NCBI GenBank assembly: GCA_963699545.1
Contig: CAVOUE010000005.1
Span: forward strand, 352,001-416,000
DNA: 64,000 nucleotides
DNA from: Nitrospirota bacterium
Lineage (GTDB): Bacteria; Nitrospirota; Thermodesulfovibrionia; Thermodesulfovibrionales; UBA9159
Direction of reading: 5' to 3'
Below the pieces are notes generated by a model that worked only from the letters and a program-made list of their open reading frames with translations, had not been told where the DNA came from and did no database searches. Both the position numbers and the translations under genes were made by a program. Positions 30,928 through 62,897 of this stretch are shown in pieces (the first letter of the stretch is position 1; every line of letters begins with the position of its first letter).

Positions 30928-32886
30928 TTACACTTCTTCCCCGTCGATCGCCTTCCGCACCAGCTTCGCCATCTCCGCTACCCTGTACGGCTTGTTCAGG
31001 AATCCGAGAACCCCTGACTCCCTCAACCCGTTGGCCTCGTCCGCGGCGTAACCGCTGGAGATGATCACCTTGACGTCCGGGTTCATCACCTTCAGACGGC
31101 CATAGGCTTCAATGCCGTCAACCTTCGGCATGACCCTGTCCATGAGGATCAGCGCAACGTCGGCGCCACATTCACGGTAAACCCTGACCGCATCTTCACC
31201 GTCCACTGCAGTGATCACGTTATACCCCAGTCCCGTGAGGATGGAGGATCCGAGAGCCCGGATCAACTCTTCATCATCGGCCAAGAGAATCGTTTCTGTC
31301 CCCCTCGGAAGTTCCTGCTTCTCCACGTGCGTTTCCGCAGGCGCACTTTCCGCGGTGACGGCGGGAAGATACACCCTGAACTCCGAGCCCCTTCTGACCT
31401 CACTGTACAGGTTTATCCAGCCCCCGTGGGCCTTCACTATGGAATAGGTAACGGCAAGACCAAGGCCTGTGCCCTTGCCCTTGGTCTTTGTGGAGAAGAA
31501 GGGCTCAAATATCCTGTTCCTTATCTCCTCAGGAATACCCTCCCCCGTGTCCTTGACCGCCACCGTCACGTAATGCCCGGGCTTTGCATAGACATAATGC
31601 CTGCAATATTCCTCATCCACCAGCGCATCCCCGGTCCGTATTTCTATGACCCCACCCTTGCTGATGGCATCCCTTGCATTCACTACAAGGTTCATTACCA
31701 CCTGCGTTAATTGGGCCGGATCTCCATCCGCCGGCCGGATGTTCATCTTCGGTAACACGCGCATCTCGACGGTCTCCTCGACCATTCGCCTGAGCATTTT
31801 CATGGCATCCTCTATGAGGTGGTTCATATTAACGGGTTGACGGGTTGCCGGCAGCTTCCTTCCGATGAGGAGTATCTGGCGCGTAAACTCTGTCGCCTTT
31901 TCCGTCAGCTCCAGTACCCTGCCCAGGTATTCCCGTGCAGCGGGGTCGACAGAATCCTCAAGAGCCAGTTCAGAGTATCCCATGATTCCCGTGAGAATGT
32001 TATTGAAGTCATGGGCAATTCCCGCAGACAGAGTACCGATAGCCTCCATCTTCTGCGCGTGAAGGAGGGACGCCCTGTGCTCATCGAGTTCCTTTGTGAT
32101 GGCGCTGGTCCTCTCCTGCAGTTTCCCTGTCATGGCGTTGAAATTATCGGCCAGGATGCCGAATTCGTCCTTCGAAGCCACCCTGATCGTGTGCGAAAGA
32201 TCCCCCGCAGCCACCTTCCTGATCCCCTCTGTCAGCCGGGAAACCGGTGCAAGGACAATATGATGAACCACAAGGTAAAGGGGGATGGAGAGAAACAAAA
32301 TGAAGACAAACCCGAAGGCACCTATGGCATATCCCTGCTTCCGGATATAGGCGTCCGCGGACTGAAGGGAGAAGGCGAATTCGATCCCGCCCAGTTCCCT
32401 TTCCTCGCGTGAGTGGATGTGGCAGGATGCGGCATAGCACGAAGGGGCATTCAGGATCGGCTCGGTCATGACAACGGCCCTCCCGCCCTTTACCTCTCTC
32501 ACGAAGCGGGAACGCCCATTCCCATCGCTCAGGGATTCACTCGCAAAAGCGTCAAAACCGCTCCGTATGGATGCGAAGCGTACAACACCGTGGGCATCCA
32601 GGACCTTGATCCATAAAATATTCTCGGTGGTGGCCAGGGAATTTACTGTCTGCCCGACATAGTCCCTGCGATTGGTGAGCATTCCATAGTAGAGAGCCCT
32701 CTTAATCACGTCCATCTGTGATTCGGCAAAGTTGATGTTCTTGTTGAGCTCTTCATACTGCATGTGCCGGATGGAGGGATACCAAAAAAGGAGGCTGACC
32801 CCGAGAATGATCAGGACGCTCATGATAATGAGCTTCCCAGCGAGGGAAAGGAACGGTTGCCCCGTCGATGAGTTGTCTTCTGCCAT
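30928..32886 (-). CDS. Hybrid sensor histidine kinase (periplasmic sensor-HAMP-HisKA-HATPase-REC)
   Basis: [19 protein letters not shown], receiver LLADD...MD.VMP. Confidence 0.95.
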
Positions 32887-33118
32887 TTTTAAGCGCTGCG
32901 GCTTTCTTTCTCTATGTTGCTGGTTAATACCCTGCGGCAAAACCTCACGGTATCTTACCATAATGAATTACGCTTTGTTCTATCCGCTTGCGTCTGTTCC
33001 ATGGTCTGGTGAAAACAGTGAATTCTTTTGATGGTGGCGACGCAAGTTCCATGCCACTCTTCCCGACTCGATGCGTCCTGGTTGTCTATGATATAATTTT
33101 TTATATGGCTTTGGGAGG

Positions 33119-36726: not shown

Positions 36727-38105
36727 GATACTTGTCATAGGGACAAGTCTTCTTGACAGGAGCTTCGAAGCTCTGTCCAGACACGGGGAAGCATCCAAAT
36801 TCAAATCTCTCGGCAGTGTGCATGTCAGGGCGGATGATCAGGTCGTTCTTCTCATCGTTGATAAGGACCAGCATAGGGAGCCGACCTTCAAAGATTTCGT
36901 AAGAACCTTCGCGGACGTGCCGAAGATCATCATATCCCATGATGATTCCTTCAGAGGCTTCGCCCGCTGGCTCAGGCTTCCCCTCACCTACCCGGTGCAT
37001 AATCCGGGCGAAAAGGAATTGGTCTTTCTCGCCGATCGTCTCGTGGCCGAACGGGACGTGCAATCTGAGAACAGGAAACTGAGGAATGACCTTTTTACCT
37101 CTCAGAGGGAGCTGGAATTCTTTGATGCGGTCGGGAGGGTCCTTACCTCGGACATGGAGCTTGATAACATGCTGGTCGTCATTATGAAAAGGACCAGGGA
37201 TATGATCAGTGCCTCGTCGTGGTCCATTTACCTCCTGGATGAAGAGACAGGAGACTTCGTGCTCGAAAAGACGGACGGAAGGAAGAAGAAAGACAAGGCC
37301 CTCAAATTGAGGTTGAAGCCGGGGGAGGGAATTACGGGCTGGGTGATCCAGGAAGGAATTCCCCTCATAGTTCCGGACGTTCTCCCGCGATGCACGGTTT
37401 GCAGGCTCAGCCCGCAGCCCTCGAAAGGCGATATCACTCATCTGTGTCCCGATTAAGAACAAGGAGCGCGTTATCGGTGTCATGGAATTTGCGGACAAGA
37501 CCACCGGCAGCCCCTTCACCAGGGATGACCTTAACCTCCTTCTGAAGATCGTGGATTATGCCGCCATTTCCATAGAAAGGGTCTCCTTGTACCATAAGAT
37601 GGCCGAACTGGCCATCACTGATGACCTCACCAAGCTCTTCAATTCCCGGTATCTGAACAGGACCATCGAGGTCGAGATCCACCGCTGTGAGCGTTCGCGC
37701 ACGTCGGTCTCTCTTATCTTCATGGATATCGATTATTTCAAGAATGTCAATGACCATTACGGTCATCTGGTGGGGAGCAAGGTCCTTGTGGAAGTGGGAC
37801 AGCTTCTCATCAAGAGCCTACGCTCCATCGACATTGTGGCGCGCTACGGAGGGGACGAATTTGTGGTGGTCCTTCCCCAGACCTCGCCGGATGTGGCGAC
37901 AAAGGTGGCCGAAAGGATACGAAAATCCATCGAACAGAACGTCTTCCTGAAGAAGGAGGGCTACGCCATCAGGATAACCGCCAGCTTCGGTGTCGCCTCC
38001 TATCCCGAGAGCGCAAAATCGAAAGAGGAGCTCCTAAAACTGGCTGACGAAGCGATGTACAGGGTGAAGAACTATACTAAGAACGGGGTTTATGCAATCA
38101 TGTAG
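36719..38105 (+). CDS. GAF-GGDEF diguanylate cyclase (indel near 37.4 kb)
   Basis: GAF (GEGITGWV...CVPIKNK) plus RSID I-site and ARYGGDEF. Confidence 0.88.
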
Positions 38106-49451: not shown

Positions 49452-49969
49452 TACAGGAGGTTCTCCACCTCTTTCGAAATGGTTTCGGCAAGGCTGGGGG
49501 AAAAGCCCATATGACGCTTCACCACCCTTCCTTCTTTATCAATGATGAACATCACCGGGATACCGCTCACTCCGTAGGCGACATTCACGCTCCCGCTATC
49601 CACCATCACCGGGTAGACAACGGCATGCTCCTTTACAAAGGCGCTCACCTTGGAAAGGGCATCACCGCCCTTGTCAACAGCAATACCAAGAAGTTGGACA
49701 TTCTTATCATGGAAGTTTTCGGACACCTTGTTCAGTTCGGGGACCGCTTCTCTGCATGGCGGGCACCACGTGGCCCAAAACTCCAGGATTACTACCTTGC
49801 CTCTGAGCTCGGAAAGCCGCACGGCGTTTCCCTGGAGACCGGTGAAGGTAAATTCAGGGGCCTTGCCGCTTTCACCGACAGCCCTTTCCTCCGCCTTCTG
49901 GCATGAAACGGCAAAAAGGCACAGAGCAACGAGGCACGCGAGAACGCAGATGTTTTTCAGATGATCCAT
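49451..49969 (-). CDS. TlpA-family thiol-disulfide reductase lipoprotein
   Basis: FWATWCPPC, lipobox AVSC. Confidence 0.92.
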   Translation of the reverse strand: MDHLKNICVLACLVALCLFAVSCQKAEERAVGESGKAPEFTFTGLQGNAVRLSELRGKVVILEFWATWCPPCREAVPELNKVSENFHDKNVQLLGIAVDKGGDALSKVSAFVKEHAVVYPVMVDSGSVNVAYGVSGIPVMFIIDKEGRVVKRHMGFSPSLAETISKEVENLL

Positions 49970-50012
49970 GAGCACGAGTTTCCTTCCCGGATTTCGATAG
50001 AGGAAGACTCTT

Positions 50013-50345
50013 TCAGGAGGCAAGAAGGAAATCGATCTTTGCCTTGAGCTGCGGCTTGGGAACCGCTCCCACAATCTGGTCGACTTTCTGACCGTCTTTA
50101 AAAAACATTACGGTCGGTATCCCCATGATCTTGTAGCGGCTTGCGATGTCCGGATTCTCATCAGTATTAAGCTTCGCCACCCGTATCTTTCCCGTATATT
50201 CCGTTGCAAGCTCCTCAACCGTCGGAGCGATCATCCTGCATGGTCCGCACCATACCGCCCAGAAATCCACCATGACCAAGCCCTGACCCTGAAGAATCTC
50301 TTTATCCCATGTATCGGTCGTCACATTTACAATGCCTTCTGCCAT
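50013..50345 (-). CDS. trxA: Thioredoxin
   Basis: WCGPC. Confidence 0.97.
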
Positions 50346-50567
50346 ATGAACCTCCTGAAATTAATTGGTCTTTAATTATATTTGCTGAACCCCCTCTTTG
50401 TCAACGCAATCCCCGTTCATCAAACGCAGACAGAGGAGAGGACATTCACTCGCCCGAAAGGCACATCCTCAAAGCGACGACAAACGTAATCATCTTTTGT
50501 TCTGTTCGCTCCGTTACAACGCCGTCCGCCTTAGCTGTCAACTGACCGAACCTCTTCAGAACAGGCG

Positions 50568-50972
50568 TCACTCAATATCTGCCGAGTAATCCGACAATGC
50601 GCCGATCGAAACTATCTTCCCTTTGAATCCCTTTCGATTAAATTTTCCATAGGCCATGGAATTATCATAGAAACGGATATGCTTTTTTTCTCTGTCCAGA
50701 TCAAACTTGCCGCCACCCACAATGACCCACGCAGGTTCAAAGATGTCATAGCGGTTGCCTTCGCTGTTACGGGACCCGTGAAGCCCTTTCTCTCTGCAAA
50801 AACGCTCTACGATATCGGCATGGAAGGAGGCAACTTCCCTGGGAGCGAGAACAAGGTATTCCGTGGTTCTGTGCCTTATCTGCACGAACTTGCCCGAAAG
50901 GTTGGACGACAGAGGCACCCCGGCTTCACGGTAATGGGAGGATTCCGAGTAATCAATAAGAATAACGTCCAT
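50568..50972 (-). CDS. Putative Janus/Ocnus (PHPT1-like) phosphohistidine phosphatase
   Basis: GKFVQIR, FHADI, GGGK, KKHIRFYDNSMAYG motifs. Confidence 0.65.
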   Translation of the reverse strand: MDVILIDYSESSHYREAGVPLSSNLSGKFVQIRHRTTEYLVLAPREVASFHADIVERFCREKGLHGSRNSEGNRYDIFEPAWVIVGGGKFDLDREKKHIRFYDNSMAYGKFNRKGFKGKIVSIGALSDYSADIE

Positions 50973-50994
50973 CCTTCCCGCTCTACCGCATCGC

Positions 50995-51684
50995 TTACTT
51001 ATTTCCTCCTCTGCCCTGCAACTTCTCAAGTGCCATTTCTGCCTGACCCTTTACGATGGAATCCTTCTCATTCTCAACAATGCGCCGGATATGGGGAATC
51101 GCCTGAGGGTTTCCGATCTCTCCCAGTGCCTTGATGGCGCTCAGCCGGATGCTGACATGCTCGTCATTTAATACACCGATAAGGTGAGGGACCGCCTCTT
51201 GACTGCCGATCTTTCCCAGGGATGATATCGATGCCTCCCTCGTAAGAAGCTCCCGGTCAGTAATACCGCTGATCAGTGCATCCACCACGCGTGAATCCCC
51301 CTTGAAGCTGCCAAGCGCCAGAGCAGTGTATGACTTTATGGCAGGACACTCCCAGTTAAGGGTGGCGTCATTGAAGATCGGCAGCAGGACTTCAATTGCC
51401 CTCGGATCGCCTGTCTCTCCCAGCAATTGGATTGCCGTCACCTTGACCACCGTGCGCTCCTCTCTGGTGTTCACAACCTCCATCAGCAGCGTTACCGTTT
51501 TTTCATCCCTCGCATTGCGGAGCTTTTCCACGGTCGCGAGACGGACCTGCCAGTCCATATTATTCAGGCTTTCCCTGACCGAGCTCATGTCTTCAACGGC
51601 ATACGACGTCCCCGGGACGATCATCACCGCGGCAAACAAGATATAAACAAACGTTTTCCCAAACAACTTTCTGTAAAGCGTCAT
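50995..51684 (-). CDS. Exported HEAT-repeat protein
   Basis: Signal peptide and repeated ALG.IG...AVP.L HEAT/PBS-lyase units. Confidence 0.88.
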   Translation of the reverse strand: MTLYRKLFGKTFVYILFAAVMIVPGTSYAVEDMSSVRESLNNMDWQVRLATVEKLRNARDEKTVTLLMEVVNTREERTVVKVTAIQLLGETGDPRAIEVLLPIFNDATLNWECPAIKSYTALALGSFKGDSRVVDALISGITDRELLTREASISSLGKIGSQEAVPHLIGVLNDEHVSIRLSAIKALGEIGNPQAIPHIRRIVENEKDSIVKGQAEMALEKLQGRGGNK

Positions 51685-51896
51685 CTTTCTTTCCTCCTTT
51701 TCCGGTATACGGTCTGTCTAAAATAAGTATACCTTATGCAGCCACAGAAAATGTGCAGCGGGCATATGGTAAAAACCGAATCACGTCGGCTCACCCGCAT
51801 GGAGAAAAGCCTTCACAGGGCAAAAGACTCGTGCCGCTTCATGCGAACAGAAAGACATGAACGCGCGACGGGACACACGCTCTGCACTCACCTCGT

Positions 51897-52136
51897 TTAT
51901 GATTCGTTAAAGAGATAGTTCAGGCCATTCTCAGTGAGTTCTAACCCTTTTGAGGGAGTTATGATCACGTAGCCTTCGTTGCGTAATTCATTCAATGCAC
52001 CATCCATTCCTGCAAAATCGGATGGTTCCCAATTGCTGGAACTGAGCGATAACTCCGACGAAGTCAACACCATGCCCGCCTTCACCTTCTCATGCTTTCT
52101 GAACAGTTCCATAATTTTCACGGCCGTTTTGCTCAT
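51897..52136 (-). CDS. Small hypothetical protein (winged-helix-like)
   Basis: AGGAG RBS; LRNEGYV...LELTENG wing motif. Confidence 0.65.
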   Translation of the reverse strand: MSKTAVKIMELFRKHEKVKAGMVLTSSELSLSSSNWEPSDFAGMDGALNELRNEGYVIITPSKGLELTENGLNYLFNES

Positions 52137-52312
52137 GTGCTCTCCTTATGACATCTATGGGTTCGCTGATATGCTGACTGCCCCTCACCCGTCCTCCATA
52201 AAATGCTATGACGTTTCACGGCTTATGTCAATGGGAGCGACAGAGCGGGAATGCCTTTCTCCGCTTGTATTGACAAGGAGGGATGACCACATGTTATTTT
52301 ATAGGCGCAAAA

Positions 52313-52387
52313 AGGCTCGTAGCTCAGGGGGAGAGCGCTTCCTTGACACGGAAGAGGTCGGCGGTTCGAAACCGCCCGGGCCTACCA
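52313..52387 (+). tRNA. tRNA-Val (GAC)
   Basis: Cloverleaf AGGCTCG/CGGGCCT, anticodon arm CTTCC-TTGACAC-GGAAG, GGTTCGAAACC, encoded CCA. Confidence 0.97.
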
Positions 52388-52395
52388 TTTAAGAT
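52341..52395 (+). repeat. attL core (55 bp, 3' half of tRNA-Val)
   Basis: Identical to 62843-62897. Confidence 0.95.
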
Positions 52396-52402
52396 CAGGT
52401 AG

Positions 52403-53515
52403 TTAGGCATTTGCGACGGCCTCTTGTTTTTGAAAACTGTGAAGTAAATGTGAAGTGTGCACTTCGTTGACCTTTATCTCCGGTGCATTGTTGAGCACCT
52501 GATCAAGAACATTCACAGCATTCGCCAGGTGTGCCGGTGCCAGGTGTGAATACCGAAGAGTCATTTTGATATCTTTGTGACCCAGGAGTCTCGATACTGA
52601 GGTGAGGTCCACACCGGCCATGACAAGATGAGACGCGAAAGTATGCCGGAGATCGTGGAAGTGAAAGTCCTGAATCTTTGCCCTTCTCAATGCGCTGCCG
52701 AATGACCGTTTAACATCCTGGTAGGGTTTCCCGCTTGTCGGATCGTAAAAGACATAGGGAACATCAAGCCTTCTGGTGAGGCCCTGCAGCGTGCTCCTGA
52801 GAGTGGAATTAATCGGGATTTCCCGGCGCTCTCCGTTCTTCGTCTTGTCTAGGAGAATAAAACCATGCTTCAGATCAATGTGAGTATCCCATTTGAGTTT
52901 CAGAATCTCGCCCTTCCGCATGCCGGTGTTGAGCGCCGTTATTACAATCGGCCTCAAGTGCTGATCGCATGCGTTGATAAGATCCCTGCATTCCTCCTGG
53001 GAGAGATACCGGAGTCTCTTGTTTTCCGGGAGCATCTTCACCTTACGGATTTTCTTCAGAACGTCCGCCTCGACCATCTCCCATTCAACAGCCTTGGAAA
53101 ACATAGCCTTCAAGACATTCAGCGTCTTGTTATTGCTGGCACCTTTCAGGCCTCTGTTTATTGTGTCTGTCTGAAGTTGTTCAACAATGGCAGTGTTGAA
53201 TCTTCTAAGAGGGAGAGTTCCGAAGACATGCAATAATTGTCCGATGATATACCCCTTCACCCTCGCTGAATTCTGACGCCCGGCGATCCATGCCGTGTAT
53301 TTCTCTGCGAGTTCCGCAAAGGTGTGATTGCTGATCTTCTTGACCTCGGGTTCCTTTCCGTCCCGGATTGTTGCTCTCCTGCCATCAAGAAGCGTTGCGG
53401 CATCATCGTATTTCTTTTTTCCCGAGGACTCTCGCCGCATTCTTCCATCGAGGCCGACGTAGCATATCCAGTAAACAGAACCACGTCGATAAATTCCTTT
53501 ACCTCTTCTTGCCAC
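52403..53515 (-). CDS. Tyrosine recombinase/integrase
   Basis: TGMRKGE, KTKNG, FHDLRHTFAS, LLGH...TLRYSH. Confidence 0.97.
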   Translation of the reverse strand: MARRGKGIYRRGSVYWICYVGLDGRMRRESSGKKKYDDAATLLDGRRATIRDGKEPEVKKISNHTFAELAEKYTAWIAGRQNSARVKGYIIGQLLHVFGTLPLRRFNTAIVEQLQTDTINRGLKGASNNKTLNVLKAMFSKAVEWEMVEADVLKKIRKVKMLPENKRLRYLSQEECRDLINACDQHLRPIVITALNTGMRKGEILKLKWDTHIDLKHGFILLDKTKNGERREIPINSTLRSTLQGLTRRLDVPYVFYDPTSGKPYQDVKRSFGSALRRAKIQDFHFHDLRHTFASHLVMAGVDLTSVSRLLGHKDIKMTLRYSHLAPAHLANAVNVLDQVLNNAPEIKVNEVHTSHLLHSFQKQEAVANA

Positions 53516-62842: not shown

Positions 62843-62897
62843 CCTTGACACGGAAGAGGTCGGCGGTTCGAAACCGCCCGGGCCTACCATTTAAGAT
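62843..62897 (+). repeat. attR core (55 bp duplicate of the tRNA-Val 3' half)
   Basis: CCTTGACACGGAAGAGGTCGGCGGTTCGAAACCGCCCGGGCCTACCATTTAAGAT. Confidence 0.95.

Follow-up and report, generated by a model that had tools for sequence, protein, structure and literature searches.

A distant bacterial homologue of the phosphohistidine phosphatase PHPT1 in a Nitrospirota genome

The DNA analysed here, called the window below, is a stretch of 64,000 nucleotides from a Nitrospirota bacterium (contig CAVOUE010000005.1, positions 352,001 to 416,000 of the forward strand). Positions 50568–51684 of the window are occupied by two open reading frames (ORFs), both on the minus strand. The downstream ORF encodes a protein of 134 residues that belongs to the Janus/Ocnus family, together with the human phosphohistidine phosphatase PHPT1, and is the subject of this report. 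The upstream ORF encodes a HEAT-repeat protein. The PHPT1-like gene and the elements of its putative active site are located as follows.

50568–50972, minus strand: PHPT1-like (Janus/Ocnus, PF05005) gene, 134 residues plus stop codon; evidence from the ORF, Pfam, the AlphaFold2 (AF2) model, Foldseek and the ratio of nonsynonymous to synonymous substitution rates (dN/dS).
50889–50891, minus strand: Lys28 (AAG) of the G-K-F motif, proposed to correspond to PHPT1 Lys21.
50820–50822, minus strand: His51 (CAT) of the F-H-A triad, proposed as the general base of catalysis and as the equivalent of PHPT1 His53.
50706–50717, minus strand: Gly86-Gly87-Gly88-Lys89 turn, aligned by HMMER with Gly75-Gly76-Gly77-Arg78 of PHPT1 (PDB 2ai6).
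50646–50660, minus strand: Ser105-Met106-Ala107-Tyr108-Gly109 loop, aligned by HMMER with the phosphate-binding Ser94-Met95-Ala96-Tyr97-Gly98 of PHPT1.

The 134-residue protein contains the motifs GKFVQIR (residues 27–33), FHADI (50–54), VGGGKF (85–90) and KKHIRFYDNSMAYG (96–109), in the order given by the original prediction for this locus. The same gene can be read as a longer ORF of 153 residues that starts at a TTG codon. The ATG start of the 134-residue form is preferred, because most homologues in a 35-sequence alignment start at its methionine and because the longer form overlaps the HEAT gene. No signal peptide or hydrophobic segment was seen in the PHPT1-like sequence when read by eye, and the protein is therefore probably cytoplasmic. 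Its two closest orthologues, at the loci designated L001 and L002, are 72% and 65% identical to it. The dN/dS ratios of 0.36 against L001 and 0.25 against L002 point to purifying selection on the gene.

The protein is a true but distant bacterial homologue of PHPT1 and the Janus/Ocnus proteins, since a Pfam match above the cut-off, profile searches of the PDB and the predicted fold agree. Pfam PF05005 (Ocnus) matches residues 36–114 over profile positions 29–94 of 108, with an E-value of 6.1e-6 and a score of 26.7 bits, where the curated gathering cut-off is 23 bits. Ocnus is the sole Pfam family found at E ≤ 1, and NCBIfam gave no match; a SixA/histidine phosphatase superfamily profile was thus matched in neither collection. 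Searched singly against the PDB with phmmer, the sequence failed to retrieve PHPT1, and its best matches were chance ones (E of at least 0.6). A profile built from the 35-sequence alignment placed three human PHPT1 entries on top (E 2.6e-4), as did a profile of 134 family sequences with human PHPT1 (E 6.9e-7); with both profiles, the matches after PHPT1 have E-values of at least 0.19. PHPT1 was also the top PDB match of two single family representatives, P0231 (E 0.008) and P0255 (E 0.028), whose alignments cover the C-terminal part only.

The AF2 model of the protein, built on the 35-sequence alignment, has a mean predicted local distance difference test score of 89 and a predicted template modelling (TM) score of 0.84, and is poor at residues 12–16 only. 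In a Foldseek comparison of the model with the PDB, ranks 1–5 are taken by chains of human PHPT1 (E 1.4e-6 to 2.2e-5, probability 1.00), with TM-scores of 0.54–0.60 on the query and 0.58–0.74 on the target; the match at rank 6 has an E-value of 0.05. The Ocnus Pfam family and the PHPT1 structures, to which the original prediction had pointed for comparison, thus both bear out a bacterial member of the family. The PHPT1 fold is of alpha/beta type, with two helices flanking a beta-sheet, and the model agrees with it. Six strands are described for PHPT1 (PMC4817053), beyond which the model has strands 2–7, 66–68 and 75–77.

HMMER, run exhaustively over 1.84 billion cluster representatives, gave 242 matches at E ≤ 0.001. 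Residue conservation was determined in 134 representatives of 110–200 residues, taken from the 150 listed of these 242 matches; 109 of the 134 match PF05005 individually. P0174 (1414 residues, 10 matching stretches) was removed as a false positive that is repetitive and lacks the family motifs. A word-indexed search gave 258 clusters at 90% identity, and the wide family profile 783 clusters at the same identity. Of the 258 clusters from the word-indexed search, 120 were listed; 96 of these carry a precomputed PF05005 label, and some bear the Joint Genome Institute (JGI) name 'Janus/Ocnus family'. A protein atlas holds a bacterial 'Janus/Ocnus' cluster of 343 members, with PF05005 on 54% of them. 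Scanning one genome per species provided 65 loci, labelled as 60 metagenome-assembled genomes (MAGs) of Nitrospirota lineage (Nitrospirae/Nitrospirota, Nitrospiraceae, Nitrospiria, Thermodesulfovibrionales and Ca. Sulfobium), three Thiohalomonadaceae, one 'Betaproteobacteria' MAG and one 'uncultured bacterium'. The scan used two peptide patterns from the Nitrospirota clade, and its taxon range is biased to that clade.

The catalytic-site residues of human PHPT1 are given as Lys21, His53, Ala54, Arg78, Ser94 and Ala96, and its substrate contacts as Glu51, Tyr52, His53, Tyr93 and Met95 (PMC4817053). The same source names the triad Tyr52-His53-Ala54 and describes binding of the phosphate by the hydroxyl of Ser94 and the backbone NH of Ala96. 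PMC11277029 describes a reaction in which His53 activates water as general base and no phospho-enzyme intermediate is involved, and reports His102 as important for activity in early mutagenesis.

His51 of the window protein is the sole invariant column of the conservation set, present in 134 of 134 representatives. It opens helix 51–62 of the AF2 model, falls within the Pfam-matched stretch, and is followed by Ala52 in 110 of the representatives and preceded by Tyr or Phe in 124. The spacing from His51 to Ser105 is 54 residues, compared with 41 from His53 to Ser94 in PHPT1, a difference of 13, and the Pfam match, with 79 residues over 66 profile positions, likewise gives a difference of 13. 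Since the two differences are equal, His51 agrees in position with His53, and we infer from motif, position and spacing that the two residues are probable counterparts. Lys28, which sits outside the Pfam local match, is kept in 128 of the 134 representatives. By the whole-chain fold match and the motif given in the original prediction, it may be the counterpart of PHPT1 Lys21, a residue of the first long strand.

The glycine turn and the serine loop are aligned with PHPT1 at the level of individual residues. Gly86 and Gly87 are each present in 132 of the 134 representatives and Gly88 in 123. All 35 close relatives have Lys at position 89, so that the positive charge is retained in that clade. 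The loop that corresponds to the phosphate-binding loop of PHPT1 lies between strand 98–102 and helix 116–122 of the model, and contains Ser105 in 130, Ala107 in 103, Tyr108 in 125 and Gly109 in 133 of the representatives. Lys28, Phe29, Phe58, Gly86–88, Ser105, Tyr108 and Gly109 are each at least 90% conserved.

We propose that the window protein is a small, probably cytoplasmic, metal-independent P–N hydrolase of the PHPT1 type, most likely a protein phosphohistidine phosphatase, and put the probability of this reading at roughly one half. The chemistry and the substrate would be those suggested by the fold and by the residues that the protein shares with PHPT1. A pocket between the first residues of helix 1 (Phe50-His51-Ala52) and the Ser105-Met106-Ala107-Tyr108-Gly109 loop would take up the phosphoryl group. 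The phosphate would be bound by main-chain amides and by the hydroxyl of Ser105, and Lys28 and Lys89 would provide positive charge. His51 may activate a water molecule for direct attack, in which case a phospho-enzyme intermediate would not be formed. Candidate targets are histidine kinases or histidine phosphotransfer (HPt) domains, nucleoside diphosphate kinase (NDK) and carriers of the nitrogen phosphotransferase system (PTS-Ntr). An animal enzyme of this family can act on a bacterial signalling protein, as PHIP-1, the Caenorhabditis elegans orthologue of PHPT1, dephosphorylates bacterial CheA in vitro (PMC11277029).

Several observations weigh against this proposal. The printed residue-level alignments to PHPT1 cover neither His51 nor Lys28. 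A profile of the N-terminal half (41 sequences, residues 1–78) searched against the PDB did not retrieve PHPT1, its best match being BRSK1 with an E-value of 0.37; the pairings of GKFVQIR and FHADI with PHPT1 motifs are therefore not significant by sequence alone, and are suggested by the Pfam match, the fold match and the invariance of the residues. Identity to PHPT1 in the Foldseek alignments is 19–22%, with a root-mean-square deviation of 5.2–5.9 Å. The position of PHPT1 Arg78 is occupied by Lys89 rather than by a conserved arginine, and varies in the wide set (33 His, 27 Arg, 18 Lys, 10 Trp and 9 Tyr). According to the profile alignment and the order of the triad, Glu51, Tyr93 and His102 of PHPT1 correspond to Ser49, Asn104 and Arg113. 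All three positions are variable; that of His102 is Leu in 29, Pro in 22 and Arg in 20 representatives. The claim of the original prediction that the catalytic residues appear retained thus holds for the likely catalytic histidine and the Ser-x-Ala loop, and fails for Arg78, replaced by Lys89, and for Glu51, Tyr93 and His102. Tyr8, Glu38-Tyr39, Cys59, Trp82 and Phe111 are invariant in the Nitrospirota clade and weaker in the 134-sequence set. The phosphohistidine phosphatase role of the Drosophila Janus proteins is described as unclear in PMC4817053, and membership of the Janus/Ocnus family therefore does not guarantee phosphatase activity. Finally, a gene for a histidine kinase, an HPt protein, a phosphotransferase system (PTS) component or NDK is not a recurrent neighbour among the 60 loci with a complete family ORF; the link to two-component or PTS signalling in the original prediction finds no echo in these neighbourhoods. 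The function is read from fold and active-site conservation only, uncultured Nitrospirota MAGs account for almost all hosts, and the genomic context points to no target.

The protein could instead retain the fold and the hydrolytic chemistry of PHPT1 and act on a small-molecule phosphoramidate or on another N-phospho residue such as phospholysine, with a role in metabolism or housekeeping rather than in signalling. PHPT1 itself has been reported to act on phospholysine and phosphoramidate. The absence of the PHPT1 substrate-contact residues Glu51, Tyr93 and Arg78 would fit such a role, as would the setting of the family gene, which usually stands alone amid housekeeping genes (those of YceG, an ABC1/UbiB-type kinase, AlaRS and Opp permeases, and trx/ffh) and never in a signalling operon among the loci compared. 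We nevertheless consider a non-protein or non-histidine substrate unlikely, as the neighbourhoods point to no small-molecule pathway either and the only characterised Janus/Ocnus members act on proteins (PMC11277029).

It is equally improbable, in our judgement, that the protein uses the Janus/Ocnus fold without any phosphatase role, for example as a ligand- or phosphate-binding, regulatory or adaptor site in which the conserved histidine serves another purpose. The sole family-wide invariant residue is the histidine of the Y/F-H-A triad, and among the loops, conservation is highest in the counterpart of the phosphate-binding loop of PHPT1, a pattern expected from selection on a catalytic site. 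A departure from catalysis would be consistent with the unclear function of the fly Janus proteins, with the identity to PHPT1 of about 20%, with the clade-specific invariants Cys59, Trp82 and Tyr8, and with two additions that the model suggests, an N-terminal strand and a longer connection from helix 1 to the GGG strand.

The proposed phosphohistidine phosphatase can be compared with several known systems. Human PHPT1 (14 kDa; PDB 2hw4, 2nmm and 2ai6) resembles it in the PF05005 domain, in fold, with a Foldseek probability of 1.0 and a TM-score of up to 0.74 on the target, and in size, with 125 residues against 134. In both proteins, helix 1 opens with a Y/F-H-A triad, a GGG-basic turn and an S-M-A-Y-G loop are present, and no metal-binding motif was noted. 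The window protein differs from PHPT1 in its low identity, in Lys in place of Arg78 and Ser, Asn and Arg in place of Glu51, Tyr93 and His102, in about 13 extra residues between the histidine and the serine loop, in an additional N-terminal strand (model residues 2–7), in the clade-invariant Cys59, Trp82 and Tyr8, and in its bacterial host. Janus-A, Janus-B and Ocnus of Drosophila and PHIP-1 of C. elegans carry the same Pfam domain but are animal proteins, and the resemblance to them is one of family only. PHIP-1 has a catalytic histidine and dephosphorylates G-beta in vitro (PMC11277029).

SixA of Escherichia coli, a small cytoplasmic phosphohistidine phosphatase, would be a functional analogue of the window protein, but belongs to an unrelated family. 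SixA uses a phosphohistidine enzyme intermediate. For PHPT1-type enzymes, in contrast, a direct attack by water is assumed (PMC11277029). SixA acts on the HPt domain of ArcB, on NPr and on Ndk (PMC7948535, PMC12934123), and its conserved active-site histidine is essential (PMC7948535). The mammalian enzymes LHPP and PGAM5 act on the substrate class proposed for the window protein, to which no similarity of theirs was found, Ocnus being the sole Pfam family at E ≤ 1. LHPP is an enzyme of the haloacid dehalogenase (HAD) type. PGAM5 belongs to the PGAM family (PMC7461546).

The window protein adds a new, as yet uncharacterised bacterial member to a known family; phosphohistidine phosphatase activity is plausible for it. 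In full-text literature searches, which cover no subscription-only papers, none of the matches listed dealt with a PHPT1/Janus protein from bacteria, and the original prediction had likewise known of none that is characterised. Bacterial members already receive the automatic tag 'Janus/Ocnus family' in JGI annotation and in the protein atlas, and the window protein passes the Pfam cut-off; what is new is therefore the lack of characterisation and not the detection. Phosphohistidine is used far more widely in bacteria than in animals. PHPT1 is treated as a mammalian or animal enzyme in the papers cited here. The phosphohistidine phosphatases with proposed in vivo targets that are named in a paper of 2020 are SixA, PHPT1, PGAM5 and LHPP, of which SixA is the sole bacterial one (PMC7948535). 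If the proposal is true, a large bacterial family of PHPT1 type would represent a second bacterial route for the removal of phosphohistidine, and its soluble 134-residue proteins could serve as simple models of the unusual PHPT1 mechanism. The bacterial family also offers a way to ask about the origin of the animal PHPT1 enzyme. We tentatively speculate, while regarding it as less likely than not, that Nitrospirota, some other bacteria and possibly phages possess a second, SixA-unrelated class of phosphohistidine phosphatase that resets histidine kinases or HPt domains, NDK or PTS-Ntr by direct water attack, and that the animal PHPT1/Janus proteins did not arise in animals but are an offshoot of an old prokaryotic family.

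The HEAT gene, the spacer that separates it from the PHPT1-like gene and the signals that flank the two genes are the following.

50995–51684, minus strand: HEAT-repeat (PBS-lyase-type) protein of 229 residues; Pfam HEAT_2 E 1.4e-32, HEAT_PBS 8.7e-21.
50973–50994, minus strand: 22-nucleotide spacer from the HEAT stop codon to the PHPT1-like ATG, with a purine-rich GGGAAGG just before the ATG.
50375–50404, minus strand: sigma-70-type promoter TTGACA-18-TATAAT before trx, 12 of 12 matches; downstream end of the HEAT/PHPT1-like unit.
50013–50345: trx ORF.
51859–51882, minus strand: terminator-like hairpin upstream of the HEAT gene; upstream end of the HEAT/PHPT1-like unit, weak evidence.

The closest NCBIfam models to the HEAT protein are NblB and CpcE, with scores far under their cut-offs. 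Its N-terminus has a basic stretch and a hydrophobic stretch followed by SYA-VE and, read by eye, looks like a Sec signal peptide. A terminator scan found no terminator-like site in the spacer between the two genes. Within 49900–52400, the only such site is the hairpin that precedes the HEAT gene; shuffled sequences averaged 2.0, and the hairpin is therefore weak evidence for a boundary. Since trx has its own promoter, the HEAT and PHPT1-like genes form a separate two-gene unit, and their co-transcription in this genome is plausible.

The spacing of the two genes is similar in L001, the only one of the 60 loci in which a HEAT protein adjoins the family gene (phmmer on 465 neighbour ORFs and tblastn on 65 loci). 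At L002, tRNA-Val lies upstream and trx, tlpA and ffh lie downstream as in the window, and the HEAT gene is absent. The HEAT protein was therefore rejected as a conserved partner of the family; the pairing is lineage-specific and incidental, and says nothing on function. Of the description of the gene as co-transcribed with an exported HEAT-repeat protein, the common strand, the short gap and the HEAT domains stand, as an accident of this lineage. That the two proteins form a functional module is very improbable: the shared strand, the 22-nucleotide gap free of a terminator and the same arrangement in L001 would suit it, but the pair occurs in one locus of 60, L002 has the same tRNA-Val/trx/ffh frame without the HEAT gene, and the signal-peptide-like N-terminus of the HEAT protein, for which the PHPT1-like protein has no equivalent, probably places the two in different compartments.

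In the window, the PHPT1-like gene stands at the end of a housekeeping block comprising rnhB, rplS, trmD, the gene of a KH-domain protein, rpsP, ffh, the gene of a TlpA-like redoxin, and trx. The neighbourhood counts cover 60 of the 65 loci, as five with truncated or frameshifted family ORFs (L054, L058, L063, L064 and L065) were dropped. The most frequent neighbours are YceG and an ABC1/UbiB-type kinase, each convergent with the family gene and each found at 17 of the 60 loci. Permeases of OppB type (13 loci) and OppC type (12 loci) lie upstream on the same strand, and a phasin (11 loci), AlaRS (8 loci) and a GGDEF protein (5 loci) recur as well. Tandem paralogues that seemed to lie upstream in about seven loci were an artefact of one frameshifted ORF of L035, and disappeared on reclustering. 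In this ORF (L035, 4092–5405; 437 residues), an OppC-like permease runs into the family gene by way of a segment of unusual composition; the fusion is probably an assembly frameshift. The nearest histidine kinase gene of the window, at 30931–32961 on the minus strand, encodes a hybrid kinase with HAMP, HisKA, HATPase_c and receiver domains and is 18 kb off. The GGDEF protein of the window is encoded at 37482–38102 on the plus strand, 12 kb from the PHPT1-like gene. Both genes are too distant to suggest linkage.

Some members of the family depart from the common pattern. No long fused forms occur among 8000 scored candidates of 346–2000 residues, which is weak evidence. In two shorter proteins, P0252 (278 residues) and P0258 (197 residues), unannotated N-terminal extensions of about 150 and 90 residues, respectively, precede a C-terminal PHPT1-like domain; these proteins are possibly natural fusions that could hint at partners. 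The divergent members from the Thiohalomonadaceae MAGs (L059, L060 and L062) have about 130–152 residues and 32–34% identity, and in all three a downstream ORF of one cluster, whose representative is a HAD-type hydrolase, lies on the same strand. The locus with the Betaproteobacteria label (L015, JBLMWN010000004.1) contains OppB, OppC, the family gene, a convergent YceG, an ABC1 kinase, a phasin and AlaRS, a gene order that matches many Nitrospirota loci; the contig may be mis-binned rather than evidence of the family in Betaproteobacteria.

Some weak evidence suggests that Janus/Ocnus-like proteins also occur in phages. A 66-member cluster of the atlas has few taxon-labelled members, with Viruses at 40% (partly phage). 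The best match in a Foldseek viral library, in which none reached E ≤ 0.001, is the uncharacterised protein A0A1B4XX83 of Tenacibaculum phage pT24 (E 0.009, TM-scores 0.42/0.51), and a tblastn search with the window protein gave no match in phage and plasmid collections.

The region upstream of the HEAT gene contains two further features.

52313–52387, plus strand: tRNA-Val.
52403–53515, minus strand: tyrosine integrase.

Between tRNA-Val and the HEAT gene lies an ORF of 79 residues (51897–52136, minus strand) that has no Pfam match and is followed by a terminator-like hairpin. At L001, these two genes are separated by 136 nucleotides, too short for the 79-residue ORF. At L001 and L002, tRNA-Val adjoins the family gene or the HEAT gene, and AddAB-like nuclease/helicase genes lie upstream. 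In the window, an exact direct repeat of 55 nucleotides (52341–52395 and 62843–62897), covering the 3' part of tRNA-Val, surrounds an insert of 10.5 kb that contains the tyrosine integrase, two helix-turn-helix proteins and about 12 ORFs without a Pfam match. The segment 52341–62897 looks like an integrated mobile element.

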